64,000 bases of DNA from Candidatus Omnitrophota bacterium (GTDB lineage Bacteria; Omnitrophota; Gorgyraeia; JAHJTE01): contig JBFMEB010000005.1 of NCBI GenBank assembly GCA_040753675.1, positions 2,303-66,302 on the forward strand. The letters run 5' to 3'. Under the pieces are notes generated by a model. It was given only the letters and a program-made list of their open reading frames with translations. It was not told where the DNA came from and made no database searches. A program made the translations under genes and the position numbers. Shown in pieces: positions 12,039 through 60,983 of the stretch (position 1 is its first letter; every line of letters begins with the position of its first letter).

Positions 12039-12079
12039 TTCTTCGTTGTTTTTAAATATCTTCTATTAAGGAGGCTAAA

Positions 12080-13054: not shown

Positions 13055-13055
13055 G

Positions 13056-18427: not shown

Positions 18428-18490
18428 CACGCGTCATAATGACGTTTAGTTAGATAAATTTTAGTCAATATCAAAAAGAGAAAGGTAGCA

Positions 18491-19513: not shown

Positions 19514-19530
19514 ACTTTTGGTAAGGTAAA

Positions 19531-44961: not shown

Positions 44962-45713
44962 TTAATAGAAAAAAAATAATATTAATTACGGGTGGCAGTC
45001 GTGGTATTGGCTCAGAAATTGCTAAGACTATAGCGAATAAAGAAAGGATTATTTATATTAACTATTACAAAAATAGAACTAAAGCAGAACAAACAGCGAG
45101 CGTTATCAACAAGAAAGGATTTAGCGCCAAAATAATACAAGCTGATGTGTCGAATGAAAAAGATGTCAAGATGATGATAAACTCGATTATAAAAGAAAGT
45201 AAATATATTGATGTTTTAATAAATAATGCAACTCCTACTTTGAGCCAAAAGAATTTTTTTAATTTATCTTGGAAAGATTTTCAAAAACAGCTTGATGTAT
45301 TAGTAAAAGGAGCCTTTTATTGTTCAAATAAAGCTTCTGAAGTTATGAAACAACAAAAAAGCGGACATATTGTTACACTTCTTTCTTCTTGCGTATTTGG
45401 ATTGCCGCCTGCTAATTTGGCACACTATGTTATAGCTAAATATGGACTTATGGGTTTGTGTAAAAGCATGGCAGTGGAGTTGGTAAGATTTGGCATCAGG
45501 GTGAATATGGTTTCGCCCTTTATTACTGTGGGTACGGATTTGACAGCTAAATTATTCCCTGAACGTCTATTGGAAATAATACAGCAACAGCATCCTTTAA
45601 AGCGGTTAGCTACTATTAAAGACACAGCAGAGATAGTGAATTTTTTAATTTCTGAAAAAGCCAGTTATCTTAACTCTGTAAATATTCCAATTACAGGGGG
45701 GGTTGTGGGTTAA
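44958..45713 (+). CDS. Short-chain dehydrogenase/reductase (FabG-like 3-oxoacyl-ACP reductase family)
   Basis: ILITGGSRGIGSEIAK, NNA, YVIAKYGLMGLCKS (YxxxK). 251 aa. Confidence 0.85.
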   Translation: MINRKKIILITGGSRGIGSEIAKTIANKERIIYINYYKNRTKAEQTASVINKKGFSAKIIQADVSNEKDVKMMINSIIKESKYIDVLINNATPTLSQKNFFNLSWKDFQKQLDVLVKGAFYCSNKASEVMKQQKSGHIVTLLSSCVFGLPPANLAHYVIAKYGLMGLCKSMAVELVRFGIRVNMVSPFITVGTDLTAKLFPERLLEIIQQQHPLKRLATIKDTAEIVNFLISEKASYLNSVNIPITGGVVG

Positions 45714-47587
45714 TGCCAAAGAACATTTTGAAACATCGTATTAAAAACGCTATTGAAAAAAAAGATTATAAAAAAGCTTATAATCTAACTGTGCAATTTT
45801 TGGATGAAGATTTACACATAAGCGAACTTATAATGTTAGATAAGTTCTGGCAGAAGAATATTAATAGAGCCTCAGAAGAACTTATGCTCAAACCTCTTCA
45901 TTTAGCCGTCACAGGTAGCTATACTTTAGATACGATTGTTTCGGTAATACGTCTTTTTCTTTTAAAAGATGGATATCGTGCTGATATTTATCAGTCAGAT
46001 TATGGAGTTTTTCAACAAGAGATTATTAATAAAGATAGTGCACTTTATGCTTTTAACCCCCATATCATACTATTGTTTATTGGTTATCGTGATGTAAAAG
46101 ACTTCCCTTCTCCTGGCATGTCTTTTGAAGAAATAAATAAAATGATAGAAATAGAGACATCTAGATATAGCCGTTTATGGCAACTACTTTCAGAAAGATT
46201 AACTTGTCATATTATCCAAAACAACTTTGATGTACCTTTGGAGAGAACTTTTGGGGAATTGGAAACAAAATATCCTTGGACTAAAAGTAATTATCTTAGG
46301 CGACTAAATTTGAGATTAGGAGAGGTTGCGCCATCGTTTGTTTCTATTTTAGATATTGAGCATTTATCAGCAAAGATAGGCAAAGAATGCTGGTTTGACG
46401 AACGTTTTTATTATCATTCTAAACAAGGCATTTCTTTTGATTGCATTTCAGCTTATGTAAAAGTTCTTGTAGCTTTAGTAAAGGCGACAATAGGCGATTC
46501 CAAGAAATGTTTAGTTTTTGATTTAGATAATACTCTGTGGGGTGGGGTTATTGGTGAAGTCGGATTGGAAAATATTGAATTTGGTATAGGTTCTGCGCAA
46601 GGAGAAGCATATCTTGCCTTTGCTAAATATATAAAATCACTTAAAGATAAGGGAGTTATTCTTGCGGTTTGTAGTAAGAACGATGAAAAAATAGCCAAGG
46701 AACCATTCAGACTGCATCCAGAGATGCCTATCAAGTTAGAAGATATCGCTTGTTTTATGGCCAATTGGGAAGATAAGGCTACTAATTTAAGGAGAATCGC
46801 CAAGGAATTGAATATTGGTTTAGATTCCATAGTTTTTTTAGATGATGATATTGTTGAAAGAAAGATGGTTAGAGCATTTTGCCCTGAGGTTACCGTGGTA
46901 GAGCTGAAGGAAGACCCCTCATTGCAACCCCGCTTTTTAGATAGCAAGTATTATTTTGAGACTATTTCTTATTCAAAAGAGGACGCTGATAGAACTAATT
47001 TTTACTTAACAAGTAAAAGACTGCAAGAAATACGAGCCGATTATTCCGATTTGCCTTCTTTTTTGAAATCTTTGAAAATGGTGGGAAAAATTAGCCGATT
47101 TAATGAATCTGATTTAAAGAGAATCGTTCAACTTATTAATAAAACTAATCAGTTTAATCTTATGACAAGACGTTATACAGAAATGCAGGTTAGGAACTTT
47201 ATGAAAAATAATAATTGTATTACTTTATCTGTTAGACTGAAGGATAAATACAGTGATTATGGTTTGATTTCTGTTTTTATTGGAAATATTTCTGAAAAAA
47301 ATTTAATTATCGATACTTGGGTTATGAGCTGTAGGGTATTTTCTAGGACAACCGAATATTTTTTATTTAATTATATACTTTATGATGCAATAAAACGTGG
47401 GATAAATAAAATTTTAGGAACATATATTCCCACAAAGAAAAATCTTGCAGTAAAAGATTTATTCCAGCAATTAAGTTTTAATTTGGATTCTAAATCTGAA
47501 AATGGGACTACTAACTGGTCTTTAAGAATTAATCAAGACTTACCTCTAAAAGAAACTTATATTAAAGCAGCTACCTTAGATGAGTGA
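45713..47587 (+). CDS. FkbH-like protein (HAD-IIIC phosphatase domain; glyceryl-ACP-forming enzyme family) with N-terminal extension
   Basis: LVFDLDNTLWGGVIGEVGLENIEFGI is the FkbH/HAD-IIIC hallmark (DxDxT plus LWGG). A catalytic Cys-type C-terminal domain follows (IDTWVMSCRVFSR). 624 aa. Confidence 0.8.
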   Translation: MPKNILKHRIKNAIEKKDYKKAYNLTVQFLDEDLHISELIMLDKFWQKNINRASEELMLKPLHLAVTGSYTLDTIVSVIRLFLLKDGYRADIYQSDYGVFQQEIINKDSALYAFNPHIILLFIGYRDVKDFPSPGMSFEEINKMIEIETSRYSRLWQLLSERLTCHIIQNNFDVPLERTFGELETKYPWTKSNYLRRLNLRLGEVAPSFVSILDIEHLSAKIGKECWFDERFYYHSKQGISFDCISAYVKVLVALVKATIGDSKKCLVFDLDNTLWGGVIGEVGLENIEFGIGSAQGEAYLAFAKYIKSLKDKGVILAVCSKNDEKIAKEPFRLHPEMPIKLEDIACFMANWEDKATNLRRIAKELNIGLDSIVFLDDDIVERKMVRAFCPEVTVVELKEDPSLQPRFLDSKYYFETISYSKEDADRTNFYLTSKRLQEIRADYSDLPSFLKSLKMVGKISRFNESDLKRIVQLINKTNQFNLMTRRYTEMQVRNFMKNNNCITLSVRLKDKYSDYGLISVFIGNISEKNLIIDTWVMSCRVFSRTTEYFLFNYILYDAIKRGINKILGTYIPTKKNLAVKDLFQQLSFNLDSKSENGTTNWSLRINQDLPLKETYIKAATLDE

Positions 47588-47825
47588 TATTAAAAAAAGA
47601 CTACAGGATATATTTCGCTATGTGTTTGAGAAGAAAAATCTCAAAATTTTTGATGAGATGACAGCTAATGATATAGAGGAGTGGGATTCCCTTATGCACA
47701 TTAATTTGATCATTGCTATCGAGAAAGAATTTTCTATTAAATTTAAACTGGGGGAACTCGTAGAGTTGGGAAATGTTGGCGATACTATACAACTAATTGA
47801 GAAAAAGCTAATGAAACAAAATTAA
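47580..47825 (+). CDS. Acyl carrier protein (DSL phosphopantetheinylation motif)
   Basis: 81 aa with EEWDSLMHINLIIAIEKEF. Overlaps the FkbH stop by 8 nt, suggesting translational coupling. Confidence 0.75.
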   Translation: MSDIKKRLQDIFRYVFEKKNLKIFDEMTANDIEEWDSLMHINLIIAIEKEFSIKFKLGELVELGNVGDTIQLIEKKLMKQN

Positions 47826-47873
47826 TGCGAAGGTCTTTATAGAGATGCATTAGTTTTAAAATTATAAAATAAG

Positions 47874-48611
47874 ATGATAATTATACTTTTGGCAGCTTAT
47901 AACGAAGAGAAAGATTTGCCACAGTTGTTGGCAAGGATTAGAGAATCGATAGCTAAGAATCATTACGAATATCGGTTATTTATTGTAAATGATGGTAGCA
48001 CCGATGGTACTGTGAATGTGGTTAAGGAGCATATGCAAATAATGCCGATAGACTTTATTGATTTTAAATTTAATCGCGGAGTAGGGGAAGCTTTCAGGGT
48101 GGCTTTGCGGCAGGTGCTTAAAATTGCCAAAGATTCAGATATTATTGTGACCATGGATGCAGATAATACGCACGACCCAAATTTAATAAAATCAATAGTT
48201 GAAAAGATAGATGAAGGTAATGATATTGTCATAACTTCTTGCTATGGGGAAAATGGCAAAATAACAGGATTGTCTTTTTCTCGCCATGTGTTAAGTCGAA
48301 GCTGTAACCTTGTTTATAGGCTTTTATTCCCAATCAAAGGAGTAAGTTTATATACTGGTTTTTATCGGGGGCATACAGCTAGAGCATTTCGCAAAACCGA
48401 AGGAATTTTTGGAGATAATCTTATAGAGTCGGTTGGATTTGGTGCTATGGCAGAATTGTTAATTAAATTCAGAAAGGCAAATTTAAGAATAGCCGAAATC
48501 CCCATGACATTGAGATACGATATTAAAATAGGAATAAGTAAGATTAAAATCCTTTCGACAATTAAGGAGCATCTGACATCAATTTTTAAAAACATATATA
48601 ATAATTATTGA
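47874..48611 (+). CDS. GT2 polyprenyl-phosphate sugar synthase (DPM1/ArnC-like)
   Basis: MIIILLAAYNEEKDL, NDGSTDGT, MDADNTHDP (DxD). 245 aa. Followed by a GT-C membrane transferase. Confidence 0.83.
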   Translation: MIIILLAAYNEEKDLPQLLARIRESIAKNHYEYRLFIVNDGSTDGTVNVVKEHMQIMPIDFIDFKFNRGVGEAFRVALRQVLKIAKDSDIIVTMDADNTHDPNLIKSIVEKIDEGNDIVITSCYGENGKITGLSFSRHVLSRSCNLVYRLLFPIKGVSLYTGFYRGHTARAFRKTEGIFGDNLIESVGFGAMAELLIKFRKANLRIAEIPMTLRYDIKIGISKIKILSTIKEHLTSIFKNIYNNY

Positions 48612-48621
48612 AAGATAATTT

Positions 48622-50139
48622 ATGCTCTCTAAAAACAAAAAAATATGGTTTTTTTTTATAATTTTGTTATTAGCATTAGCCCTCAGATTGCCGAATATAG
48701 AAAAAAGTTTGAATGGTGACGAAGCTTATACTGTTATAGGTGCCAGAAATAATTTGTCTGAAATTATTCCGCATCTTTCTAAAGGTGAGCCACATCCACC
48801 ATTGACATATATCCTTTTGCATTTTTGGCTGTTTGTTGGCAGCTCAGATGGCTGGATTAGGCTTTTATTCATTTTATTTGGCTTAGGAGTTTGCTTTGTA
48901 ACTTATTTATTGGCCAAAGAATATATTAATGAGGAATTTGGCCTTCTGAGTATGTTTTTTGTTAGCCTATTGCCGGGGCAGATTTATCTATCTCAGTATG
49001 TACGGGTCTATATTGTTGCTACCTTTTTTATTAGCCTCTCAGCCTATTTTTTTATAAAACTGCTACGTTATGAGCATAAATTTTCCAATTGGCTTGGATA
49101 TCTTATTTCTACAATTTGTAGTTTATATACTTTTTATTTTGTAATTTTGTTTATTATTGGAGAAAATATTTTTCTGTTTATAAATTGGAATAGATACAAA
49201 AAAATTATTACGCGCTGGATTTTAACTCAAATTACGATATTGCTATTGTTTTCTTTTTGGATACCTAATCTTTTCATGCAGAGATTTAAAATTAGCTATT
49301 CAACGGTAGTCGCTGCAAAAAAAGGTTTTTATATAGCGGGGCAACATTTCGGACTTTTAGCACGTTGGGTTATGGCTACGTTAGGGCTGGATCCTATTTT
49401 TTTATCCGAAGGTTTATCTGGAAAATTGCCTCATCAGTTGCTTGCTGTTGTGGCAATTTCTAGCATAATTATATTATTTGTGGTGCTCACTTTAGCAGTT
49501 AATTTTTTTAGAAAATACCACAAGATAGGCAGGCACGAAGCCTACTTATTTCCTGTGTTAGTTATTGTCCCGATCATTGTTGCGGGTTTGTGGCGCAATT
49601 TAAGCAATGGAGCGGTTGCTGCACGTTATTTTATTTGTATCTCGGGTATCTTCACATTGATTTTAATCGCTGCAATTTTTTTTATCGAAAGAAAAAAGGC
49701 GCAGATAATACTTATTTCAACATTTTGCTTTTTCTGCATGCTTAGATTGCCTGTAGTTTATGCTCCAGAGGAGAACTGGCGCGAGGCCGTTAATCATATT
49801 GAGAGAGAGCTAAAAACTGATGATTGTATAGTTTTTTTTAGGTCTGGCCACAGCGGATATAATTATTATGCCAATTCAAACATTCCGCAGATTACTTTTG
49901 CTACTTATATGGATATGAGCCAAAGGACATTTGATTTTCTGAATATCCAACAAGAAGATTCAAAAAGACTCTATCAAATATTAAAGCCATACAAACGTAC
50001 GTGGATAATTTTAACTCATCATCTTATGTTTTCAGGATTCGATAAGATGATTACCTGGTTTAGCGATAACAGATACAAGATATTAGAAGAAAGTAAATTT
50101 GAAGGAATTGAACTTTTATTATATGAACGGCCGATCTAA
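48622..50139 (+). CDS. GT-C fold membrane glycosyltransferase (ArnT/PMT, GT39/GT83-like)
   Basis: 505 aa with about 11 TM helices. N-terminal loop with NGDEAYTVIGARN (DE motif of GT-C) and a soluble C-terminal domain. Confidence 0.72.
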   Translation: MLSKNKKIWFFFIILLLALALRLPNIEKSLNGDEAYTVIGARNNLSEIIPHLSKGEPHPPLTYILLHFWLFVGSSDGWIRLLFILFGLGVCFVTYLLAKEYINEEFGLLSMFFVSLLPGQIYLSQYVRVYIVATFFISLSAYFFIKLLRYEHKFSNWLGYLISTICSLYTFYFVILFIIGENIFLFINWNRYKKIITRWILTQITILLLFSFWIPNLFMQRFKISYSTVVAAKKGFYIAGQHFGLLARWVMATLGLDPIFLSEGLSGKLPHQLLAVVAISSIIILFVVLTLAVNFFRKYHKIGRHEAYLFPVLVIVPIIVAGLWRNLSNGAVAARYFICISGIFTLILIAAIFFIERKKAQIILISTFCFFCMLRLPVVYAPEENWREAVNHIERELKTDDCIVFFRSGHSGYNYYANSNIPQITFATYMDMSQRTFDFLNIQQEDSKRLYQILKPYKRTWIILTHHLMFSGFDKMITWFSDNRYKILEESKFEGIELLLYERPI

Positions 50140-50199
50140 TTTCTTTGCTTTGATCAGCAAAATCTAATTGCATTAGTTTTATATGGGAGGAGGATAACC

Positions 50200-51231
50200 G
50201 TGGTGAATATAGGAGTTATCGGTTGTGGTCATTGGGGACCTAATTTAGTAAGGAATTTCGTTGAATTACCCGATGTTGAATTAAAGGTTCTATGTGATTT
50301 GGACGAAAATAAGGTTAAGTCGTTGAAAAAATACTACCCCAGTGTTAATACGGTCACAGATTATAAAGAAATACTTGATAATAAAGAAATAGATGCTGTG
50401 GCTATAGCTACGCCTGCCAAGAGTCACTATGCATTAGCAAGAGAATGTCTCTTAGCCGGAAAACATATTTTAGTCGAGAAACCATTAGCTCTATCCAGTA
50501 GTGAAGGAGCGGATTTATTGCAGCTTTCAGAAAAATATAAAAAGGTTTTAATGGTTGGACACACTTTTTTGTATAACCCAGCAATACGCGAATTAAAAAA
50601 ATATATAAAGTCCAAAGAAATCGGGGATATATATTATATTTTTTCGCAGAGATTGAATTTAGGCCAGATTAGGAGAGATGTCAATGCTATGTGGAATTTT
50701 GCTCCGCATGACATTTCTATAATTTTGCATCTAATTGATGAAATACCTATTAGGGTAAATGCGAAAGGATTGTCCTGCCTACATAGCGACAACGAAGATA
50801 TAGTTTTCTTAAATCTCGATTTTAAGAGCGGCATAAATGCCCATATTCATATTAGTTGGCTAGATCCTGTAAAAGTACGCAGGATGGTAGTTGTAGGCAG
50901 CAAAAAGATGATTGTTTATGATGATATTAGCGCCGATTCAAAAATTCAAATTTATGATAAAGGAGTAGATAAAATTAATAATTCCAAAAATGCACAGGGT
51001 TTAGGTTCTTTTGCGGAATTTCAGTTAAAGCTTCGTAGCGGCGACATTCATATCCCTCGAATAGACTTTTACGAACCGCTAAAAGAAGAATGTGCTCATT
51101 TCATAGACTGTATAAAGAATAAAAGAGTGCCTTTGACCGATGGTAAACATGGTTTGATGGTTGTTAAGATTTTAGAAGTTGCAAATAATTCAATCAAACA
51201 GGCCGGTGCACCTATTAATTTTACAACATAA
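50200..51231 (+). CDS. Gfo/Idh/MocA family oxidoreductase (paralog of 10433-11440)
   Basis: VNIGVIGCGHWGPNLVRNF, EKPLALSSSEG, MVGHTFLYNPA. Clearly paralogous to the WbpB-like gene at 10433. Confidence 0.85.
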   Translation: MVNIGVIGCGHWGPNLVRNFVELPDVELKVLCDLDENKVKSLKKYYPSVNTVTDYKEILDNKEIDAVAIATPAKSHYALARECLLAGKHILVEKPLALSSSEGADLLQLSEKYKKVLMVGHTFLYNPAIRELKKYIKSKEIGDIYYIFSQRLNLGQIRRDVNAMWNFAPHDISIILHLIDEIPIRVNAKGLSCLHSDNEDIVFLNLDFKSGINAHIHISWLDPVKVRRMVVVGSKKMIVYDDISADSKIQIYDKGVDKINNSKNAQGLGSFAEFQLKLRSGDIHIPRIDFYEPLKEECAHFIDCIKNKRVPLTDGKHGLMVVKILEVANNSIKQAGAPINFTT

Positions 51232-51270
51232 TGCAATTGCCCAGTTACTCTCTATAAGGATGGTTAGATT

Positions 51271-52686
51271 ATGAAAGTACTTTTAATAAATCCACCGGAT
51301 AGGAATATGATAATCTCCGATAATCCATCTTTTATAGATGAAGAGAGAGGGGTTAATCCTCCTTTAGGTCTTTTATATCTGGCTGCTTATTTAAAGCAGA
51401 ACAGTAATCATGAGGTAGAGGTTCTTGATACGCTTGTTGAGAAAATAGGCTATGAAAGATTAGGTGAAATTATCGGCCAGAAATCTCCGGATATCGTAGG
51501 TATAACAACTACGACATTTACTTTAATTGACGTTATGAAAACCGCAAAGATAGTAAAGTCTGTTTCTGATGATATAAAGCTGGTCTTAGGTGGGCCTCAT
51601 CCAAGTATCTACCCACGAGAGTCGGCATCTCTGAAAGAAATTGATTTTGTAATTGCCGGCGAGGGAGAGAGGGTATTTCTCGCATTGATTAATAATATAA
51701 ATAATAAGGCTGTCCTTTCGACCATAAACGGGCTCTTTTTCAAAAATAACGGCAAGGTCATTGGAAATGCGCAGTGTGACTTTATAGACGATTTGGATAA
51801 TCTTCCCTTTCCCGCAAGGAGTCTTACGCCCTACAGAAAATATAACTCTATCATTGCTAGGAGAAATCCTATAACCACAATGTTTACCTCCAGAGGTTGT
51901 CCGTTTAATTGTTCATTTTGTGACAGGCCACACATGGGTAGGCACTTTCGGGCGAGGTCATATAAAGGCGTTGTAGACGAAATGCAGGAATGTGTAGGAA
52001 TGGGCATAAAAGAGATATTTATCTACGATGATACTTTTACCGTAGATAGAAAAAGAGTCTTAGATATATGCGAGGAAATAATCAGGAGGAATTTAGATTT
52101 TAGCTGGGATATAAGGACAAGGGTTGATACAGTAGATGCAGAGATGCTAGTAAAGTTGAAAAAAGCTGGCTGTGAGAGGATTCACTATGGAGTAGAGGCA
52201 GGTACCGATAAGATACTTAAGATTCTAAATAAAGGAACAAGTGTAAAGAAGATAAAGGATAGCTTTAGATTGACTAAAAAAGTAGGAATTTCTACCTTGG
52301 CCTATTTTATGATTGGTTCACCTGAGGAGAAAAAAGAGGATATATTGTCTACAATAAATCTTATGAAAGAATTGAATCCCGATTACGTCCATATTACCAT
52401 AACAACCCCTTTTCCTTCAACAGAACTTTACAGAAAGGCTATGTTAGAAGGTGTTATAAAAAGCGATTATTGGAGAGAGTTTGCTAACAATCCAGATCAG
52501 AAGATATCTTCAATATATTGGGAAAAGGAATTTACAAGAGAAGAGCTGCTCGATTTATTAAGTTTCGCTTATAAGAGTTTCTATGGAAGACCAAGTTTTA
52601 TATTATCTAATCTTATTAAGATAAGATCATTTGTTGATTTTAAAAGAAAAGCCAAGGCAGGTTTTAAGATTCTAAGTGCTAAATAG
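51271..52686 (+). CDS. B12-binding (class B) radical SAM enzyme
   Basis: MKVLLINPP..LGLLYLAAYLKQ. FTSRGCPFNCSFCDRP. FMIGSPEE. 471 aa. Confidence 0.85.
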   Translation: MKVLLINPPDRNMIISDNPSFIDEERGVNPPLGLLYLAAYLKQNSNHEVEVLDTLVEKIGYERLGEIIGQKSPDIVGITTTTFTLIDVMKTAKIVKSVSDDIKLVLGGPHPSIYPRESASLKEIDFVIAGEGERVFLALINNINNKAVLSTINGLFFKNNGKVIGNAQCDFIDDLDNLPFPARSLTPYRKYNSIIARRNPITTMFTSRGCPFNCSFCDRPHMGRHFRARSYKGVVDEMQECVGMGIKEIFIYDDTFTVDRKRVLDICEEIIRRNLDFSWDIRTRVDTVDAEMLVKLKKAGCERIHYGVEAGTDKILKILNKGTSVKKIKDSFRLTKKVGISTLAYFMIGSPEEKKEDILSTINLMKELNPDYVHITITTPFPSTELYRKAMLEGVIKSDYWREFANNPDQKISSIYWEKEFTREELLDLLSFAYKSFYGRPSFILSNLIKIRSFVDFKRKAKAGFKILSAK

Positions 52687-52692
52687 AAAGAT

Positions 52693-54114
52693 ATGAAGAT
52701 ATTATTATTAAACCCCCCCTTTACGGAATACGGCGGCCTGGAAGGCCATGGCGGAAAAGCAGCGCCTTTAAATCTAGCATATTTAGCTGCATTTCTAAGA
52801 GCAAAGCGTCCACAAGATAAGATATCCATACTGGATTGTGAGGGTCTGGAGCTTTCTTATAATGATATAGCAATTGAACTAAAAAGCATACAACCGGATA
52901 TAGTTGGTATTACTGCTCCTACGCCTGCCTATGTCCAGGTGAAGGAGGTTTCAAAGATTATTAAAGAAATTAGTAAAGATATAAAAGTTATATTAGGAGG
53001 GCCTCATCCTACAGCATTTCCATTAGAGACTGTTAAAGAAGAGTTTGTTGATTTTTCAGTATACGGCGAAGGAGAGTTAACTCTTTTGGACTTAGTTAAT
53101 GCCATCGATAAAAAAATGGATTTTAGTTCAGTAAAAGGCATAGCTTTTAAGGATATTTATGGTGATGCTCATTTGACAGAATTGCGCCCATTAATTCAGG
53201 ATTTAGATTCGATTCCCTTCCCAGCAAGAGAACTTTTGCCACTAGAGATATACTTTCCACCTCCAACAAAACGGGTCAGTAATAAAAAAAGTGGAAATAT
53301 GATTACCTCCAGAGGTTGTCCGTATCAGTGTACTTATTGTATGGCGCGAATTATATGGAATAAAAAAGTACGTTATAGAAGCGTTAAAAATGTTGTAGAT
53401 GAGATCGAAGAATGTGTTAAGAATTTTGGAATAGGTGAATTTAATTTTCATGATGAATTATTTACTTTAAAAAAAGAACGCACAATTGAGATTTGTAGGG
53501 AAATAAGACGCAGAAAGTTAGACATAGCCTGGGTATGTATGGTTCGAGTTGATTATGTCTGGGAAGATGTTTTAAGAGAGATGAAATTAGCGGGTTGTAA
53601 GAAAATAATGTTTGGATTTGAATCCGGCTCACAAGAAATTTTAGACCTGATGAAGAAAAATGTTAAAGTAGAACAGGCTTATGAGGCTGTTAAGTTAGTA
53701 AAACGTTGTGGAATTAAGACCGCCGGAAATTTTATGTTTGGCAATATTGGAGAGACTGAAGAGACTATAAGGAAGAGTATCAATCTGGCAAAAAGATTAA
53801 ATACAGATACCGTGGCATTTTTTATTGCCAGTCCATATCCGGGTACTGAATTTTATAATATTGCCAAGGAAAGTGGATATTTTAGGCAAGGCCTAGACTG
53901 GAAAGATTTTACATTAGTCTCTGATAATGCAAGACCACCTTTAGACCTTCCCGGATTGAGTTCTGAAAGAATAGCCTATTGGCAAAAGAAAGCATATAAA
54001 GAATATTATTTTAGGATGGATTACATATTTCAGAAATTATTTGGCATACGTTCAATTATTGATGTTAATAATCTATTTTATGGGGTCAGACTTTTATTTA
54101 AATTGCAAAAATAA
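52693..54114 (+). CDS. B12-binding (class B) radical SAM enzyme
   Basis: MKILLLNPPF..LNLAYLAAFLRA. ITSRGCPYQCTYCMAR. 473 aa. Confidence 0.85.
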   Translation: MKILLLNPPFTEYGGLEGHGGKAAPLNLAYLAAFLRAKRPQDKISILDCEGLELSYNDIAIELKSIQPDIVGITAPTPAYVQVKEVSKIIKEISKDIKVILGGPHPTAFPLETVKEEFVDFSVYGEGELTLLDLVNAIDKKMDFSSVKGIAFKDIYGDAHLTELRPLIQDLDSIPFPARELLPLEIYFPPPTKRVSNKKSGNMITSRGCPYQCTYCMARIIWNKKVRYRSVKNVVDEIEECVKNFGIGEFNFHDELFTLKKERTIEICREIRRRKLDIAWVCMVRVDYVWEDVLREMKLAGCKKIMFGFESGSQEILDLMKKNVKVEQAYEAVKLVKRCGIKTAGNFMFGNIGETEETIRKSINLAKRLNTDTVAFFIASPYPGTEFYNIAKESGYFRQGLDWKDFTLVSDNARPPLDLPGLSSERIAYWQKKAYKEYYFRMDYIFQKLFGIRSIIDVNNLFYGVRLLFKLQK

Positions 54115-54144
54115 TTTTTTAAGATTAAGGCTTATTCCTAAAAA

Positions 54145-55572
54145 ATGAGTTGTCGAATTGCATTTATAGTGCCTCCTTCGCAAGCCATATCATTAAAATT
54201 CGTTTCCTATCAGCAGCCTATAAACATGGCTTATTTAGCTGCTGAGGTTATCAAGGCTGGCCATAATGCCGTGATATGGGATTATGGAGTTGAAGAGTAT
54301 AATTTAGAAGACATTATTGATAGAATTAATGGTTTTAAGCCTCAGATAATAGGTATCCATTGCAAAACTTTTAGCATTATTCAGGGTAATGAACTGGCAA
54401 GGGAAATTAAGAAAAGTTACCCCCAGATATTAATCCTGGTGGGGGGGCCTCATTCTACGGCACTGCCGGAAGAGACATTGAGAGAGTTTGAGAATTTCGA
54501 TGCTGTGGCTATAGGAGAAGGTGAGAAAACAATCGTTGATTTATGTGAACATATAGCAATAGGTAAATCGCTAGAGGGTGTAAATGGTATAGCAATACGC
54601 AACGGGATAAAGATAATACGCACTTCACAGAGAGAATTAATAGCTGATTTAAATGCACTTTCATATCCTGCTAGACAATTGCTACCAGAAAATTTATATA
54701 ATAAACGCCATGCTTCAAGGGGGATTTCTTCTCGTGGACGAAAAGTAACAGAGATCTTTACTTCGCGGGGTTGTCCAGGGCAATGTATTTTTTGTGCGGC
54801 ACGTCTTTCCTATGGAAATTGTGTTCGATTTAGAAGTTTAGATAATGTATTAGGAGAGGTAGACGAATGTATAAATAAATTCTCCTATGATCACATAGTT
54901 ATTCAAGATGATACCTTTACCCTAAATCATGAAAGAGTATACGGGTTGCTTGAAGGATTTCGAAAACTCGGCGTTAAATCATGGAGTTGCGATACAAGGG
55001 TCGATGCTGTAGATAAAGATCTAATTAGAGAGATGGCGCGTTCAAACTGCAAAAAAGTTTCCTTAGGGGTAGAATCGGGAAGCGAGAGAATTTTAAAGCT
55101 GATAAAGAAGAATATTAGTCTACAGCAGGTACGCAACGCGGTTAGATGGGCAAGGTCCTCTGGAATCCAGTTGGTTGAATGCACTTTTATCATTGGTAGT
55201 CATCCCGATGAGACAAATGAAGATGTTTCTCTTACCTGGAAGATGATAAAAGAACTTAGTCCGGATATAATCTCTGTTTCAGTAATAGTTCCCTATCCTG
55301 GTACAGAAGTTTACAGTTTAATGAAAGAGAGAGGCTATATTGATAATCAAGACTGGGAAAACTTTCAATTGATAGGCAGTAAATTAAGCTGGCATACAAA
55401 ATATTTTTCTTCAGAGGAATTGCTTCGGCTGCAGCGGCAATTTATTAATAACTATTATTTTAATTTCAAATATATTATGCGCTCCTTAAGAAGAGCCAAG
55501 AGTATCAAAGATATCAGCTATCTCTTCAAAACAGGACTGGGCGTCTTAGGGTTTCTCTTTAAGAAAGATTGA
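54145..55572 (+). CDS. B12-binding (class B) radical SAM enzyme
   Basis: IAFIVPP..INMAYLAAEVIKAG. FTSRGCPGQCIFCAAR. FIIGSHPDET. 475 aa. Confidence 0.85.
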   Translation: MSCRIAFIVPPSQAISLKFVSYQQPINMAYLAAEVIKAGHNAVIWDYGVEEYNLEDIIDRINGFKPQIIGIHCKTFSIIQGNELAREIKKSYPQILILVGGPHSTALPEETLREFENFDAVAIGEGEKTIVDLCEHIAIGKSLEGVNGIAIRNGIKIIRTSQRELIADLNALSYPARQLLPENLYNKRHASRGISSRGRKVTEIFTSRGCPGQCIFCAARLSYGNCVRFRSLDNVLGEVDECINKFSYDHIVIQDDTFTLNHERVYGLLEGFRKLGVKSWSCDTRVDAVDKDLIREMARSNCKKVSLGVESGSERILKLIKKNISLQQVRNAVRWARSSGIQLVECTFIIGSHPDETNEDVSLTWKMIKELSPDIISVSVIVPYPGTEVYSLMKERGYIDNQDWENFQLIGSKLSWHTKYFSSEELLRLQRQFINNYYFNFKYIMRSLRRAKSIKDISYLFKTGLGVLGFLFKKD

Positions 55573-55585
55573 GGAGACAGATATT

Positions 55586-56338
55586 ATGGAACCTGAAATC
55601 TCGGTAGTTATTTTATGTTATAAAAGTGGACGTCAAGTTTATGATTTTTTTGAAAGGACAATGCACTCTCTTAGAGAGGCGATTCCTTTATGGGAAATAA
55701 TTCTTGTTGGGAATTATTTCGAGAACACAGATGACGATACTCCTCGAATAGTAAATGAAATCGCATTAAAATTTGAGCAGGTAAGAGCCATTACGTTGCC
55801 TAAAGAAGGAATGATGGGATGGGATGCTCGTACCGGCTTAAATGCAGCAAGAGGTAAATATATTTGCCTTATCGATGGTGACGATCAGATGTCATGCGAA
55901 GACATAATAAGAGTGTATAAGAAGATTAAGGAAGAAAAATCGGATTTCGTTCAGACCTACCGGGCAAAGCGGCATGACGGATTTAGGAGAAAAATGATAT
56001 CTTTACTTTATAATAAGCTGTTTCAGATATTATTTCCCGGCACGGCCATAAAAGATGTTAATTCTAAGCCTAAGATTTTTACGAAAGTTGCATATGAAAA
56101 AATGCATCTTTTATCAAATGATTGGTTTCTTGATGCGGAAATTATTATACAAGCAAGAAAACTCAAGCTTAAAATGGCCGAGGTTCCTACCGTCTTCCGT
56201 AAATGTAAATATAGAAAATCTTTTGTAAAATCCAGCGCTATATTTGAGTTTTTAAGAAATCTTTTTTTGGCAAGGATAAGATATTTTTTTAAAGAAGATA
56301 ATGGCAAAGAACATCTTTATAACCGGTGCCACGGGTAG
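55586..56338 (+). CDS. Glycosyltransferase family 2
   Basis: ISVVILCYKSG, LIDGDDQ (DxD). 250 aa. Confidence 0.8.
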   Translation: MEPEISVVILCYKSGRQVYDFFERTMHSLREAIPLWEIILVGNYFENTDDDTPRIVNEIALKFEQVRAITLPKEGMMGWDARTGLNAARGKYICLIDGDDQMSCEDIIRVYKKIKEEKSDFVQTYRAKRHDGFRRKMISLLYNKLFQILFPGTAIKDVNSKPKIFTKVAYEKMHLLSNDWFLDAEIIIQARKLKLKMAEVPTVFRKCKYRKSFVKSSAIFEFLRNLFLARIRYFFKEDNGKEHLYNRCHG

Positions 56339-57191
56339 GATCGGCAGGCATTTGATAAAATCATTGCTTTCAGCAGGAAATTCCCTTTTTTTATTAGAGA
56401 AACCCGCAGACAATAGCGTTAAAAATAAGAGCATGCATTATATATTAGGCGATTTGTTAGATCCTGACAGTTATAAGCAGGTTTTTAAGGAAGGCATAGA
56501 TTGCCTGCTGCATATGGCCGCTGTAACTCATACAAATGATATAAATAAATATTATGCCGTTAACACCGATGCGACTCTACATTTAGTGCGACTTTGTGGG
56601 AATTTTGGGGTAAAAAGATTTATTTTTATAAGCACACGGGCCTTGGCTGAGAGCGCAGGGGATTATAGCAGATCAAAGATGCTGGCTGAAAGATTTATAA
56701 GAGAGAGTTCTTTAGATTGGATTATATTACGGCTCTCAGAGGTTTACGGTAGTTCTACGGATAAAGGCATTACTTTGATTTTAAACCATATCGGAAAACT
56801 CCCCTTTATACCTATTATCGGAAGAGGCGATTATTCCGTTGCCCCTGTTCACATATCAGATGTCATTTTTGCTATAACTAAAGTTATAGAGGATGATACC
56901 TTACGTAATAAGATTTATACTATAGCTGGTCCCCTAAGCTTTAAATATAATGATTTTATTGATAATGTGTTGGCGATAAGGAAGTTAAGAAAAAGAAAGC
57001 TATATATACCGGAATCTGTTGCTAAGATTTGTCTTGGGCTTAGCGCATTGCTGTTTAAGGATAAATTTTTTGTAAAAGATCAGCTTCCTCGGTTGCTTTG
57101 TGAAAAATCTTATGACATATCAGAGGCAGAAAAGGATTTTGGTTTCCATCCAATATCCATTGAAGAGGCGGTCCTAAAAAATGACAAGTAA
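56301..57191 (+). CDS. NAD(P)-dependent epimerase/dehydratase family protein (atypical SDR)
   Basis: IFITGATGRIGRHLIKSLL. 296 aa. Catalytic YSRSK. Confidence 0.75.
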   Translation: MAKNIFITGATGRIGRHLIKSLLSAGNSLFLLEKPADNSVKNKSMHYILGDLLDPDSYKQVFKEGIDCLLHMAAVTHTNDINKYYAVNTDATLHLVRLCGNFGVKRFIFISTRALAESAGDYSRSKMLAERFIRESSLDWIILRLSEVYGSSTDKGITLILNHIGKLPFIPIIGRGDYSVAPVHISDVIFAITKVIEDDTLRNKIYTIAGPLSFKYNDFIDNVLAIRKLRKRKLYIPESVAKICLGLSALLFKDKFFVKDQLPRLLCEKSYDISEAEKDFGFHPISIEEAVLKNDK

Positions 57192-57193
57192 AA

Positions 57194-58930
57194 ATGAAGA
57201 GAACATTTAATTATAATATAATAGTTTGTATTCTTTTTATTGGTTTCTTATTTGCCTTTCCGCGAATTTTCTTAGGAGAGGATTCTTATGTAACTATTCA
57301 TGATAATTTAGATATAGGTTCTATTTGGTTTATAAGGCATATTGAAAAAAGTAATATTTTTAATCCCCAGTCTTTGCTTGATAATACTATGAATGGTCTA
57401 CCGCGGCCGTTTCTAACCACCGGTTCTGCTGTGATGTTGGCCCTTTTTCTGTTATTCAAACCGTTTACCGCCTATGTAATAAATGAGCTATTGGTGCATT
57501 TGCTTGCATTCATCGGGATGTATTTATTGCTTAAGAGGCATGTTTTAAAATCGAAGGATGAGGATTTCATAGCCTTTGGTGTATCAGTTTGTTTTGCGGC
57601 ATTGCCATTTTATTCGCTTTTTGGCTTATCCGTTGCCGGCCAGCCGTTATTACTTTATGCATTTTTAAATTTAATAAATAATAAAAAGCACATTTTAGAT
57701 TTCATGATAATTTTTATTTTTCCTTTTTATGCGCCTTTATATTATGCCGGATTTGCTATTCTTATAGCGCTAGGAATTTTATTTATCTTCTATTACATAA
57801 GTGAGAGAAAGGCTAATAAACTATTCTTATCTGGGCTAATACTTTTCTCAATTAGCTATGTGTTTGTCGAATTCAATTTTATTAAAATGGCTATCTTCGA
57901 TAATAATTTGGCTATTCATAGGATGGATTGGAATCCTCTTTATTTAGCTAGAAACTATAAAGAGGCGATGAAGCTAGGATTCAAGAATTTTTTATTCGGA
58001 GATTATAATGCACCGAGTAAACATACTCCTATTATATTAGTCTCTTTTTTGAGTATCCTAACGGTATTTCTCGCTAACAGAAAAGCTCAATTAGGAAATA
58101 CTGCGAAATCAATCTTTATTTTATTGCTTATAGCTTTCAGTATATCGCTATTCCATGGTCTTTACCATTGGGAAGGATTAGTTCTCCTAAAGGAGAAAAT
58201 CGACCTTTTGAGGGTAACACAGTTTAATAGGTTCTTTTACCTAGAGACTATTCTATGGTACATTGTTTTTGCATTATCTCTTTTTTCATTATTGCATTTG
58301 GAACATGGAAAATCTTTTGTAAGAATTTTGATTATATCTCAGTTAATTTTTATTTTTACCAGCAAATTTGAATCGAAAAATGAATTGAGTATTAATTATA
58401 AGATCATTTTTGAAAGAGCCTTCGGTAAAGAGAAAAACAGGCTTACCTATGGGAAGTTTTTTTCAGAAACTTTATTTTCTGATATTGATGAGTACCTTGG
58501 CCTACCTAAGAAGACATACCGCCTGGTCAGTATTGGTATCCATCCGAGTATCCTTCAGTATAACGGTTTTTATACTCTGGACAGTTATCAGAATGTTTAT
58601 CCTCTGATATATAAACATCGTTTCAGAGAAATCATTGCAAAGGAGTTAGATAAGAGCACTCAATTGAAAGATTACTTCGATTATTGGGGTAATAGATGCT
58701 ATATATTTGTAGCCGAGCTTGAAGATGAAGGGTTTACAATCACGAAAGAGAGGAATATAAAAATCCATAATCTTGAATTAAATACCAACGCCTTAAAGAA
58801 ACTAGGTGGAAGGTTTATACTTTCAGCGGTACAGATTCTAAACGCCAAGGATAACAACTTGGCGCTATTAAAGATATTTGAACGCGATGATTCTCCTTGG
58901 CAGATTTATTTGTATAAAGTGGATAGTTAG
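57194..58930 (+). CDS. Large integral membrane protein of unknown function (about 10 TM N-domain plus about 180-aa soluble C-domain). Possible polymerase or GT-C-like.
   Basis: 578 aa, strongly hydrophobic for the first about 390 aa. No recognisable catalytic motif. Confidence 0.5.
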   Translation: MKRTFNYNIIVCILFIGFLFAFPRIFLGEDSYVTIHDNLDIGSIWFIRHIEKSNIFNPQSLLDNTMNGLPRPFLTTGSAVMLALFLLFKPFTAYVINELLVHLLAFIGMYLLLKRHVLKSKDEDFIAFGVSVCFAALPFYSLFGLSVAGQPLLLYAFLNLINNKKHILDFMIIFIFPFYAPLYYAGFAILIALGILFIFYYISERKANKLFLSGLILFSISYVFVEFNFIKMAIFDNNLAIHRMDWNPLYLARNYKEAMKLGFKNFLFGDYNAPSKHTPIILVSFLSILTVFLANRKAQLGNTAKSIFILLLIAFSISLFHGLYHWEGLVLLKEKIDLLRVTQFNRFFYLETILWYIVFALSLFSLLHLEHGKSFVRILIISQLIFIFTSKFESKNELSINYKIIFERAFGKEKNRLTYGKFFSETLFSDIDEYLGLPKKTYRLVSIGIHPSILQYNGFYTLDSYQNVYPLIYKHRFREIIAKELDKSTQLKDYFDYWGNRCYIFVAELEDEGFTITKERNIKIHNLELNTNALKKLGGRFILSAVQILNAKDNNLALLKIFERDDSPWQIYLYKVDS

Positions 58931-58948
58931 GTTGATATATAACTGTTA

Positions 58949-59908
58949 ATGGCGGAAAAGTTTCAAATGAAAGAATACTTACTTAAAATAATAGGTATAA
59001 TTATTTTAGTTTTTATTTTAAAGGATGTTGATATCCGTTTAGTGGCATTGAATATCAAAGATTGTAATCTATTTTTATTAATAGCGGCAGTTATTTTAGA
59101 GACGAGCTGTATTATACCGAAGGCAATAAAATGGCAGGTAATTTTAAAGGCATTAAAAATAAAAGCCAGTTTTTTTGATAGTTTGAGGGCCTATTGGTCG
59201 GGATTGTTTTTTGGTGCGATAACTCCGGGTAAAGTCGGAGATATATCAAGGGTATATTTTTTGAGTAAACATAACCCTTTTATCGTTAGGTCTATATTTT
59301 CTGTTGTGTTGGACAGACTATCTGATATTGTAGTTCTGCTATTAATAGGTTTGGCTGTTAGTTTTTTCTACTTGAATGAGATAAAGTTTTTAAATTTCGC
59401 TATTCTTTTGACTTTAGCTGGCCTTTGCTTATCTGCCACATTGATGTTTCTCAAAAGAGATTTTTTTTATAGTCTATTTATGAAATTGTTATATAAGTTT
59501 ATACCTAAAGAAAGATTATGGCTAAAAGTAAATCCTAATTATGAAATTTTAAAAGATATAAAACCCATAAATTATATTTTAGTTTTTATGTATCTATTGC
59601 TAGCGTGGGCAATATATTTTTTAGCCTACTGGGTTCTAAGCAAGGCTTTATTTATAGAAATGCCTTTCTTATATTTGGTAGGAACAGTTACAGTAGCTAC
59701 TATAGTATCTTTGATTCCTATATCTATCAGTGGCTTGGGGACGCGAGACGCAGCAGTTGTATTTATGTTATCCAAGATAGGGATATCTAAAACTTCTGCC
59801 CTTTCTTTCTCATTGATGATGTTTGCTATAGGAATGTTTATTGTAAGCTTCGGATTTATATTTTATTTCCAAGGGCAGGGCAGGAGGGCCTTAAGAGTAG
59901 ATGGATAA
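58949..59908 (+). CDS. Flippase-like domain protein (lysylphosphatidylglycerol-synthase TM-region / UPF0104 family)
   Basis: 319 aa with about 8 TM helices. GAITPGKVGDISRVYF motif typical of this family, which is often paired with GT2 polyprenyl-phosphate sugar synthases. Confidence 0.6.
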   Translation: MAEKFQMKEYLLKIIGIIILVFILKDVDIRLVALNIKDCNLFLLIAAVILETSCIIPKAIKWQVILKALKIKASFFDSLRAYWSGLFFGAITPGKVGDISRVYFLSKHNPFIVRSIFSVVLDRLSDIVVLLLIGLAVSFFYLNEIKFLNFAILLTLAGLCLSATLMFLKRDFFYSLFMKLLYKFIPKERLWLKVNPNYEILKDIKPINYILVFMYLLLAWAIYFLAYWVLSKALFIEMPFLYLVGTVTVATIVSLIPISISGLGTRDAAVVFMLSKIGISKTSALSFSLMMFAIGMFIVSFGFIFYFQGQGRRALRVDG

Positions 59909-60983
59909 AACGAATATTAGCAACGACGTATTGGAAAATTTATCTTGGTGGACTTTATTAGACCCGGATTTGATTCGTGAGGATTTGATTAAGAGCCAAT
60001 GGATAAAGCGTATAGACGGTTTGCTCGACACGAGGGTTATATCTCCATTTGAGGCAGTATGCAGGAGGATTCTACATAAAATTCTTTTGTACTCTTCTGA
60101 TACGAATAGGTATCGGATTACGGATTCGATTAAAAAGTTGCGTCAGTTAGTGAGAAAGGAACTGATAGAGATTCCCCATTGTACTTTTGTAGAGATTTAT
60201 TCATACCTGGTTAAAAAATTTAATGCTACACCTTTAACTTGGAATGGGCATAAAGCCTGTGTTTGCTTAACTCATGATGTGGATTCCAAGGAAGGGTATA
60301 GATTTATAGAAAATATTTTAGATTTGGAGAAACGTTTTAAAGCTAGAAGTACATATAATTTCCTTACTAATTGGGGATACAGAATAGATTCACATTTAGT
60401 TAAAAAAATTTTGGAGGCTAAGTTTGAAGTAGGATTACACGGATGGACACATGATATCGCTTTGGGATGCCGAGATAAAAAAAGAATAAAGAGGGAACTT
60501 GGTCTAGCAATGAAAGAATTAGGAGTGCGAGTTTCTGGTTTTCGCGCTCCTGCTTTTGCTATAAGTAAAGCCTTACTTGAAGTATTAGTAGAGCTAGGAA
60601 TAAAGTACGATAGTTCAATGAAAACTCTCAGTTGCTATGGCCAGGCAGTAGAATCGCCTTATCCTTATAGATATCCAGGGGTAGATATCTGGGAAATCCC
60701 TTTAACTATACAGGATGACAGGATATTCAGGGATTTACATCTGAGCTGCGAGGAAGGCCTGGGTGTAATAAAAGAATTGGTCGAAAGGATTATTAAGGTT
60801 GGGGGCGTTGTCGTGATTAATACACATCCCAGACTGATCAAGTCAAGATATATATTTTACGAAGATTTCCTTGCCTGGTTATCTGAACAACCGGATATTT
60901 TGGTATGTCCAACAATAGAAGTCATAGATATATGTGAGCAGAGAAGAGAGGAATTTAATAGATGTCTTTCGATAAAAAAGTAA
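59901..60983 (+). CDS. Polysaccharide deacetylase-like (CE4/NodB-like) protein
   Basis: CVCLTHDVDSKEGY (DxD/H region) and GLHGWTHD (His motif). 360 aa. Confidence 0.62.
   Translation: MDKTNISNDVLENLSWWTLLDPDLIREDLIKSQWIKRIDGLLDTRVISPFEAVCRRILHKILLYSSDTNRYRITDSIKKLRQLVRKELIEIPHCTFVEIYSYLVKKFNATPLTWNGHKACVCLTHDVDSKEGYRFIENILDLEKRFKARSTYNFLTNWGYRIDSHLVKKILEAKFEVGLHGWTHDIALGCRDKKRIKRELGLAMKELGVRVSGFRAPAFAISKALLEVLVELGIKYDSSMKTLSCYGQAVESPYPYRYPGVDIWEIPLTIQDDRIFRDLHLSCEEGLGVIKELVERIIKVGGVVVINTHPRLIKSRYIFYEDFLAWLSEQPDILVCPTIEVIDICEQRREEFNRCLSIKK

Follow-up and report, generated by a model that had tools for sequence, protein, structure and literature searches.

Three consecutive genes in a 64,000-nucleotide (nt) stretch of DNA from a Candidatus Omnitrophota bacterium (contig JBFMEB010000005.1; hereafter "the window") encode proteins that, judged from their sequences, are radical S-adenosylmethionine (SAM) proteins of class-B architecture, in which an N-terminal cobalamin (B12)-binding-type domain precedes the radical SAM core. 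We propose that these proteins, called R1 (51271–52686, + strand, 471 amino acids [aa]), R2 (52693–54114, + strand, 473 aa), and R3 (54145–55572, + strand, 475 aa), tailor amino sugars that are carried on a membrane lipid, likely polyprenyl phosphate, at the cytoplasmic face of the membrane before flipping occurs. We give this reading a probability of roughly 50%. It draws on observed domain content, orthology, conserved neighbours, and gene fusions, and from these we infer which substrate is used, in what order the steps proceed, and which cofactor and chemistry are involved.

All three proteins match the Pfam models PF02310 (B12-binding; 68 to 82 bits, with R1 at 82 bits, against a gathering cutoff of 32.1 bits) and PF04055 (Radical_SAM; 81 to 100 bits, with R1 at 100 bits, against a cutoff of 29.5 bits). 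The per-domain E-values range from 1e-19 to 1e-28, and because values of this order recur in three neighbouring genes, the domain matches are not due to chance. A CxxxCxxC motif is present at residues 209 to 217 of each protein (CPFNCSFC, CPYQCTYC, and CPGQCIFC in R1, R2, and R3, respectively); in R1 it is located at residue 210, after a GGPH motif at 107 and a GEGE motif at 130. The overall two-domain fold resembles that of solved class-B members. No transmembrane (TM) segments are found in R1, R2, or R3, and the last 50 residues at the C-terminus of each are amphipathic with a net charge of +6 to +9. The genes are closely spaced, with 39 nt before R1, 6 nt between R1 and R2, 30 nt between R2 and R3, and 13 nt after R3; a scan of 47500–64000 for promoters and terminators yielded signals at background level only and added nothing to this picture of tight spacing.

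A preliminary description of this DNA had reported three consecutive paralogous genes of about 470 aa, each with a B12-binding-like N-terminal domain and a CxxxCxxC motif. The open reading frames (ORFs) are exactly as given there, and the B12-binding signature on which that description had made its case hinge is found by a hidden Markov model (HMM), PF02310, well above cutoff. It had also suggested that the array of three serves iterative or multi-site C-methylation, or other radical chemistry. The class-B assignment stands, but the three proteins do not form one unit, and their chemistry is ambiguous.

Specifically, R1, R2, and R3 are 33 to 36% identical to each other over their full length, whereas their orthologs in other phyla retain 50 to 79% identity. 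Recent tandem duplication is thereby ruled out, and because identity between orthologs across phyla far exceeds that between the paralogs, the three genes represent anciently diverged, separate families. Orthologs of R1 (55 to 64% identical) are present in loci L001 (Portnoybacteria), L091 (a Parcubacteria contig), L088, and L089, and the R1 family of 56 to 68% orthologs is large. Orthologs of R2 (50 to 79%) occur in the same four loci and in L004 (Woesearchaeota) and L090 (Acidobacteria). Those of R3 (46 to 63%) are found in L086 (a Desulfobaccales contig), L087, and L092, all of which lack R1 and R2. The hosts of these orthologs include Patescibacteria, Woesearchaeota, Elusimicrobia, Acidobacteria, and Desulfobaccales.

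The gene order tells the same two groups apart. R1 and R2 form a conserved pair that is found together in six contexts, with a 4-nt gene overlap in L091. Locus L089 matches the window gene by gene, carrying counterparts of a MocA-type oxidoreductase (53%, located between the R1 and R2 orthologs), R1 (64%), R2 (79%), a UPF0104 membrane protein (48%), a deacetylase (68%), an epimerase (67%), and a family 2 glycosyltransferase (GT2; 64%), with the deacetylase and epimerase orthologs in the same positions as in the window. Relative to L089, a block comprising R3, the GT2 gene at 55586, a short-chain dehydrogenase/reductase (SDR) gene at 56301, and the DUF6044 gene at 57194 is inserted between R2 and the UPF0104 gene. 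The R1/R2 module thus comprises the MocA (50200), UPF0104 (58949), deacetylase (59901), epimerase (60962), and GT2 (61917) genes, and R3 heads a separate, inserted module that is found elsewhere without R1 and R2.

Conserved partners and the predicted lipid-linked substrate

Partner genes were counted in 12 independent loci, namely the window, L001, L004, L006, L086 to L092, and a 464-kilobase (kb) JGI contig. In raw counts, a GT2 gene is present in all 12 loci, a Pfam-recognised glycosyltransferase of the GT-C fold (PMT_2, YfhO, DUF2079, or DUF6044) in 8 of the 12, and a UPF0104 (LPG_synthase_TM) gene in 7 of the 9 loci that carry an R1 or R2 ortholog. UPF0104 homologs adjoin or lie near R1 or R2 orthologs in L001, L004, L089, L090, and the JGI contig, and R2 orthologs usually have such a flippase-like gene beside or near them; in the JGI contig the two genes overlap by 4 nt. 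Genes for deacetylases of the NodB type, class-I methyltransferases, and DegT aminotransferases likewise occur often near orthologs of R1, R2, and R3.

A radical SAM protein and a membrane component are joined by a gene fusion in L006, a contig (JBAZMW010000002.1) from a Patescibacteria metagenome-assembled genome (MAG). An uninterrupted ORF of 797 aa at 11440–13833 joins a B12-binding domain, a Radical_SAM domain (51% identical to R1), and an LPG_synthase_TM domain, and the basic amphipathic tail of the radical SAM part leads straight into the first TM helix. Upstream are genes for a GT2, a deacetylase, and an R2-like radical SAM protein, giving the order GT2, deacetylase, radical SAM, and radical SAM::flippase. 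This fusion parallels MprF, which joins a synthase to a flippase, and AglD, which joins a GT2 to a UPF0104 domain (PMC5898192). Because of the conserved neighbours and this fusion, a lipid-linked sugar is the likely substrate, rather than the nucleotide sugar or acyl substituent that the preliminary description had considered.

In the proposed pathway, a small soluble GT2 of the PpgS, ArnC, or AglJ type would load an N-acetylhexosamine (HexNAc)-type sugar, possibly modified beforehand by the MocA-type 3-dehydrogenase, onto the lipid. The NodB-type deacetylase would free the amine, and the radical SAM enzymes would then functionalise unactivated C–H positions of the lipid-linked sugar. The UPF0104 protein, which is MprF-flippase-like, would move the product across the membrane, where a GT-C transferase (PMT_2 or DUF6044) would attach it to a surface acceptor. 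The Arn pathway follows this lipid-linked sugar logic, and MoeK5 works on a sugar linked to lipid phosphoglycerate.

We propose such tailoring because of three precedents. In GpgSDF and HexSDF, a glycosyltransferase, a deacetylase, and a UPF0104 flippase act on lipid-linked glucosamine (PMC12713373). In HpnI/K/J, a GT2 and a deacetylase work with a class-B radical SAM enzyme on hopanoid-linked glucosamine (PMC13459092). The third is MoeK5, the sugar C-methylase of moenomycin, which clusters with HpnJ and Fom3 in a sequence similarity network (PMC9204698). AglD with its PMT/STT3-like neighbours is a further precedent (PMC5898192). More generally, the logic proposed here is that of a glycosyltransferase producing lipid-linked HexNAc, on which a deacetylase acts before a flippase (a UPF0104 protein in the cases of GpgF and AglD) translocates it and a GT-C enzyme transfers it (PMC12713373, PMC5898192). 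The Arn (ArnC/D/E-F/T) and Gtr-type three-component systems are organised in this way as well. However, none of these systems includes radical SAM enzymes, and GpgS, unlike the GT2 proteins of the window, is a GT4 that acts on phosphatidylglycerol.

A different substrate must be weighed against these data. The enzymes might act on soluble UDP-, CMP-, or GDP-sugars before glycosyltransfer and give C-methyl-branched or otherwise modified sugars, in essence the view taken in the preliminary description. The absence of TM segments from R1, R2, and R3 would accord with soluble substrates, on which GenK, GenD1, and Fom3 act, and the characterised sugar-modifying class-B methylases are all reported to use them (PMC9204698). 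The locus is also rich in genes for nucleotide-sugar chemistry (a WbpB/E/D-like trio, PseB/C/I-like genes, a cytidylyltransferase, and epimerases), and the gene conserved directly next to R1 is the one for the MocA 3-dehydrogenase-like protein. Nevertheless, action on soluble sugars would leave unexplained the recurrent tight linkage, the 4-nt overlap, and the fusion with a lipid flippase-like domain, as well as why each module is accompanied by a small GT2 and a GT-C, and why the C-terminal tails are basic and amphipathic. We therefore regard this alternative as unlikely, and favour action on the lipid-linked sugar.

The individual partners, all encoded on the + strand, can be matched to the steps of the proposed pathway as follows. 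The gene at 50200–51231, assigned by Pfam, encodes a GFO/IDH/MocA oxidoreductase (UDP-GlcNAc 3-dehydrogenase-like or WbpB-like) that is a conserved partner of R1 and R2; its best NCBIfam match is UDP-GlcNAc 3-dehydrogenase (NF040723), at 196 bits against a cutoff of 450. It and the GT2 at 55586–56338 are the flanking genes that the preliminary description had recognised correctly as a WbpB-like oxidoreductase and a GT2. The UPF0104 protein (58949–59908; LPG_synthase_TM, PF03706, 154 bits) passes the NCBIfam "flippase-like domain" model TIGR00374 with 64.8 bits against a cutoff of 43.2. Among NCBIfam models at E≤1e-5 it matches only this generic model and not HpnL. By its family membership it fits the membrane flippase component of three-component lipid-linked sugar decoration. 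The next gene (59901–60983) encodes a polysaccharide deacetylase of the NodB/CE4 type (Polysacc_deac_1, 36 bits, cutoff 23.1), followed by one for an NAD-dependent enzyme of the sugar epimerase/4,6-dehydratase family (60962–61927; Pfam). The small soluble GT2 at 61917–62648 (243 aa) is the best candidate for a polyprenyl-phosphate-HexNAc synthase of the R1/R2 module; in NCBIfam it comes closest to PpgS (86 bits), AglJ, and dolichyl-P-hexose transferase, without reaching any of their cutoffs.

Within the R3 module, the GT2 at 55586–56338 (250 aa, Glycos_transf_2) is likewise small and soluble, lacks a TM segment, and is a candidate polyprenyl-phosphate-sugar synthase paired with R3; ArnC is its best NCBIfam match, weak and below cutoff. 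A GT2 gene occupies the same position after the R3 ortholog in L087, where the order of R3, GT2, and SDR is kept; in L092, an R3-like gene is followed directly by an SDR gene. The SDR itself (56301–57191, 296 aa) belongs to the NAD-dependent epimerase/dehydratase family (Pfam Epimerase, 92 bits). The DUF6044 protein (57194–58930, 578 aa, 564 bits) is a polytopic membrane protein with 10 TM-like segments and then a soluble C-terminal region, and a search against PDB sequences returned no homolog. Upstream of the MocA gene are another small GT2 (47874–48611; Glycos_transf_2, with ArnC-, PgfS-, and AglJ-like proteins as best NCBIfam matches) and a PMT_2-type GT-C (48622–50139; 32.8 bits, cutoff 26.1) with nine TM-like segments and a best NCBIfam match to Agl23-like proteins. 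The latter, judged by family and topology, fits the GT-C transferase component of three-component decoration.

Some neighbours in related loci fall outside this set. Pfam scans of unannotated neighbours of 450 to 620 aa in L004, L086, L087, L088, and L090 assigned them to no family. In L086 (305–2116 and 5556–6290), the R3 ortholog has among its neighbours a SPASM radical SAM protein, a PF27859 "LIC12162" protein, and a DUF2079 membrane protein, and a DedA/VTT-domain protein stands in place of UPF0104. This suggests that modules of this type can exchange their parts for handling the carrier lipid for alternative ones. In addition, a flavoprotein resembling GMC oxidoreductases (about 515 to 543 aa, with weak Pfam matches) follows radical SAM arrays in two Patescibacteria loci, L091 (10831–12378) and L003 (14709–16340).

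Cobalamin-binding-type domain and candidate chemistry

When the N-terminal domains of R1, R2, and R3 are used in isolation to search PDB sequences, the only matches are TokK (E 7e-5) and OxsB (E 9e-4), and the GGPH and GEGE motifs align with those of TokK. AprD4 was not found by this search even at E≤10. At the sequence level, therefore, this domain resembles only the verified cobalamin binders TokK and OxsB. However, for the complete proteins, AprD4 (PDB 6FD2) is both the closest solved structure and the closest PDB sequence, with sequence similarity confined to the radical SAM core from about residue 163 onward. AprD4 is a sugar diol-dehydratase that neither binds nor uses cobalamin, and together with ArsL it demonstrates that class B as defined by sequence includes proteins that do not bind the cofactor (PMC12931638). 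Because AprD4 binds no cobalamin (PMC12931638), a Pfam B12-binding match is not proof of cobalamin use.

This similarity raises the possibility that one or more of the enzymes, R3 especially, are cobalamin-independent 1,2-diol dehydratases of the AprD4 type, which would work with the adjacent SDR to deoxygenate an amino sugar, as AprD4 does with AprD3, and would retain the B12-binding domain as a structural relic. AprD4 does act on an amino sugar, in apramycin 3′-deoxygenation. Yet the AprD4 family model (NF033070) gives R1, R2, and R3 only 126, 121, and 115 bits over residues of about 150 to 400, against a cutoff of 500 and below HpnJ, BchE, PhpK, and others. Moreover, the resemblance is limited to the core, the N-terminal domain lacks detectable similarity to that of AprD4 while matching TokK and OxsB and keeping GGPH and GEGE, and SDR genes are common in any sugar locus. 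We consider this interpretation decidedly improbable.

Among NCBIfam models, HpnJ and BchE rank ahead of PhpK, HpnR, MgmA, and AprD4. HpnJ (TIGR03471) is the best or second-best model for each protein, scoring 218.5, 235.8, and 205.9 bits for R1, R2, and R3 over nearly the full length, below its cutoff of 577.6. BchE (TIGR02026) is the top match of R1 and scores 230, 221, and 162 bits, below a cutoff of 481.35. The JGI automatic annotation labels many orthologs as BchE or "anaerobic Mg-protoporphyrin IX monomethyl ester cyclase." The window, however, has no tetrapyrrole context, and the organisms are non-phototrophic; the cyclase label on these relatives is an over-annotation.

The likeness to HpnJ bears on another possibility, in which the enzymes carry out a rearrangement like that of HpnJ/Cds. 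A lipid-bound head group of the glucosamine type would be ring-contracted to a carbocyclic (cyclitol) head group, and this would yield a new membrane glycolipid instead of a glycan unit that can be transferred. With its GT2, deacetylase, class-B radical SAM, and UPF0104-family genes, the set mirrors HpnI, HpnK, and HpnJ of the bacteriohopanetetrol cyclitol ether pathway, where the gene for the class-B enzyme accompanies those for a GT2 and a deacetylase and its product acts on lipid-linked glucosamine (PMC13459092). It also mirrors the glycolipid logic of GpgSDF (PMC12713373), and the gene order of L006 would fit as well. Several differences count against such a rearrangement. The scores are well short of the HpnJ cutoff, the annotated ORFs of the window include neither a squalene-hopene cyclase gene nor hpn genes, and HpnL is absent from the NCBIfam matches of the UPF0104 protein noted above. 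HpnK is a YdjC-type deacetylase, whereas that of the window is of the NodB type, and the window has GT-C transferases and several radical SAM paralogs. The Candidate Phyla Radiation (CPR), DPANN, and Omnitrophota are not known to produce hopanoids. The GT-C proteins found in 8 of the 12 loci need a glycosyl donor, and a carbocycle would presumably not be transferable in this manner. Finally, HpnJ clusters with the true methylases Fom3 and MoeK5 (PMC9204698), and likeness to HpnJ therefore does not imply rearrangement. We give this possibility still less credence than AprD4-type dehydration.

If the proposed tailoring of lipid-linked sugars is correct, cobalamin-dependent C-methylation, as by MoeK5 and GenK, would be the single most likely chemistry, with about two-fifths of the weight, and HpnJ-type rearrangement and AprD4-type dehydration would be live rivals ranked behind it. 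Methylases of the MoeK5/Fom3 type, compared here by description only, have the same architecture as R1, R2, and R3 and methylate unactivated sugar carbons. Unlike these proteins, they are encoded by single genes in actinomycete antibiotic pathways, not by arrays in surface-glycan loci. The methylation suggested in the preliminary description is not established: no equivalog cutoff is reached, the two best HMMs (HpnJ and BchE) both describe non-methylases, and the nearest structure is that of AprD4. A separate idea, that the R2 family holds an auxiliary Fe–S cluster, is unsupported. Its conserved cysteines C241, C268, and C302 are scattered without a CxxC pattern, and C241 and C302 align with cysteines of AprD4, which has a single cluster.

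Several points weigh against our preferred reading of lipid-linked sugar tailoring. First, the functions proposed for the three families come from sequence and gene context. All NCBIfam equivalog cutoffs are missed widely by R1, R2, and R3, and the overall nearest structure is that of an enzyme that needs no cobalamin and acts on a soluble pseudodisaccharide (PMC12931638). Second, in radical-type methylases such as TokK, Mmp10, and CysS, a hydrophobic residue is expected under the corrin and between the corrin and the cluster. In a low-identity profile alignment in which positions are uncertain, TokK W76 corresponds to Phe, Pro, and Phe, and TokK W215 to Arg, Ala, and Ala, in R1, R2, and R3, respectively; the residues at these methylase-distinguishing positions thus appear ambiguous. 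Third, the partner genes leave room for doubt. The three small GT2 proteins (PF00535) match PpgS, ArnC, AglJ, and dolichyl-P-hexose transferase only far below cutoff, and DUF6044 is predicted to be a GT-C-like transferase from its topology only. The partner frequencies are raw counts to which no background model for enrichment was applied, and L088 and L091, although they carry R1 and R2 orthologs, have no UPF0104 gene within the retrieved flanks of 10 kb and 8 kb. Last, the fusion occurs in a single MAG contig and could have arisen from a lost stop codon.

The glycan locus and radical SAM arrays in relatives

R1 and R2 are 100% identical to NCBI MAG proteins, which marks the window as part of a Candidatus Omnitrophota MAG contig. 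The modules are part of one + strand glycan locus that extends over at least 57 kb, from 7056 to the end of the window. Its content includes ManC, a WbpE/B/D-like trio, PseB/C/G/H/I-like genes with NeuB, a cytidylyltransferase fusion, Wzx, GT2 and GT4 glycosyltransferases, and a set of FkbH, acyl carrier protein (ACP), MaoC, and FabG genes. The nonulosonate context of the NeuB/Pse type that had been described earlier is real.

The three genes first described are confirmed, but they are not the full complement, since the window holds six class-B paralogs. The fourth (39812–41224, + strand, 470 aa; Pfam B12-binding and Radical_SAM) is intact and is the closest paralog of R1, with 42.5% identity. 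The fifth (35936–37420, + strand, 494 aa; Pfam) is also intact, is 30 to 36% identical to R1, R2, and R3, and lies between a methyltransferase gene and two GT4 genes. The sixth (23445–24961, + strand) is split by a frameshift into ORFs of 373 and 132 aa, with the Pfam match on the first part. BLAST aligns both parts with consecutive regions of R1, and the frame changes at about 24524–24531, in a run of seven A residues. The split could reflect a pseudogene, phase-variable switching, or a fault in the assembly. The split paralog is preceded immediately by the gene for a 419-aa radical SAM protein that lacks a B12 domain (22205–23464, + strand), which itself follows a GT2 gene; the C-terminus of this protein weakly matches the C2185-like_N domain (25.4 bits, cutoff 27).

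Arrays of this kind are not special to the window. The following statistics come from a contig scan of relatives that are 30 to 43% identical, among the matches listed, and were not used for orthology. At least two class-B paralogs within about 20 kb are present in 46 of 82 related loci and at least three in 27 of 82, and directly adjacent runs of at least three such genes occur in 6 of 81 loci. One Parcubacteria contig carries six class-B radical SAM genes and one SPASM radical SAM gene in 17 kb. An exhaustive search returned about 15,000 clusters (50% identity) at E≤1e-30.

Domain fusions among the relatives add to this picture. P0368 (1879 aa) carries radical SAM, methyltransferase, GT2, methyltransferase, GT2, and radical SAM domains on one chain. 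P0307 and P0476 join a radical SAM domain to a methyltransferase, P0382 and P0412 are double radical SAM proteins, and P0373 has up to five radical SAM stretches on one chain of 2331 aa. In P0490, a domain of the alkaline-phosphatase superfamily (Phosphodiest/Sulfatase) is joined to a class-B radical SAM protein. P0388 also belongs to these giant or multi-domain relatives.

The same surroundings bear on the proposal that the genes have nothing to do with glycans and lie incidentally in a sugar locus, where their products would modify a peptide, in the manner of ribosomally synthesised and post-translationally modified peptide (RiPP) enzymes, or a lipid tail. Many class-B radical SAM enzymes do act on peptides or lipid chains (PMC12931638, PMC13459092), and ApyD, a RiPP enzyme, is the third-best NCBIfam match. 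However, the vicinity contains no precursor-peptide-like or lipid-synthesis genes, at least five phyla and two domains of life share the glycan neighbourhood, and relatives are fused to GT2 domains. We judge this proposal to be extremely unlikely.

Other features of the locus are recorded here in their own right; those with a noted strand are on the + strand. A side-chain cassette at 43952–47825 (+) encodes a GNAT protein, a MaoC dehydratase, a FabG-like SDR, an FkbH-like protein, and an 81-aa ACP (47580–47825) with a WDSL motif, a PP-binding match of 21.6 bits, and an 8-nt overlap with the FkbH gene. Such a gene set suggests that an amino sugar carries a substituent of the glyceryl or hydroxyacyl type. 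Amid the nonulosonate genes, the region 17981–21111 (+) encodes a type II dehydroquinase, an ApbA/PanE-type reductase, and an AMP-dependent ligase, which are unusual in a sugar locus and may hint at a quinate/shikimate-derived or other carboxylic acid substituent. Two further fusions are a cytidylyltransferase joined to a class-III aminotransferase (15187–17244, +, 685 aa) and an aminoglycoside-3-N-acetyltransferase-like domain joined to DUF4910/DUF2172 (26364–28217, +, 617 aa), the latter accompanied by a stand-alone DUF4910/M28 paralog at 30649–32013. At its left end (1–9259), the window carries housekeeping genes (a Rho-like ATPase fragment, prfA, prmC, an EPSP-synthase-family gene, and trpG/D/C), directly after which the glycan locus begins. 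A MarR/HTH_24 regulator (8642–9259) lies between ManC and the first aminotransferase.

A possible pathway of radical sugar chemistry

Class-B radical SAM enzymes have so far been encountered chiefly in pathways for antibiotics, cofactors, peptides, and lipid tails. The enzymes described here are of a known kind, set in a conserved and uncharacterised surface-glycan context. The earlier statement that such an array is undescribed agrees with our finding no account, in the searchable literature, of such arrays or of class-B radical SAM enzymes linked to polyprenyl-phosphate-sugar, UPF0104, or GT-C modules. Multiple copies of these enzymes in surface-sugar modules that also hold a lipid-sugar GT2, a deacetylase, a flippase, and a GT-C would open a new arena of radical sugar chemistry.

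We tentatively advance a broader idea, which we consider possible but doubtful. Omnitrophota, CPR, DPANN, and other anaerobes may share a widespread and unrecognised pathway in which an amino sugar carried on a lipid is remodelled at the inner face of the membrane by sets of two to six radical SAM enzymes of the B12 type, after which a dedicated and sometimes fused UPF0104 flippase exports the product. Such remodelling could consist of multiple C-methylations, deoxygenation, or carbocycle formation. The R1/R2 and UPF0104 module is compact, and in L006 it consists only of a GT2, a deacetylase, a radical SAM protein, and a radical SAM::flippase fusion, which makes the module directly testable.

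The families are 50 to 79% conserved across phyla and between Bacteria and Archaea, and several copies are retained in the very small genomes of CPR and DPANN organisms. Conservation in such small genomes suggests an important surface structure and a dependence on external cobamides. If the pathway exists as proposed, its products would represent a new class of surface glycoconjugate, and the scavenging of cobamides would be a requirement for building the cell surface in ultra-small, host-dependent microbes.

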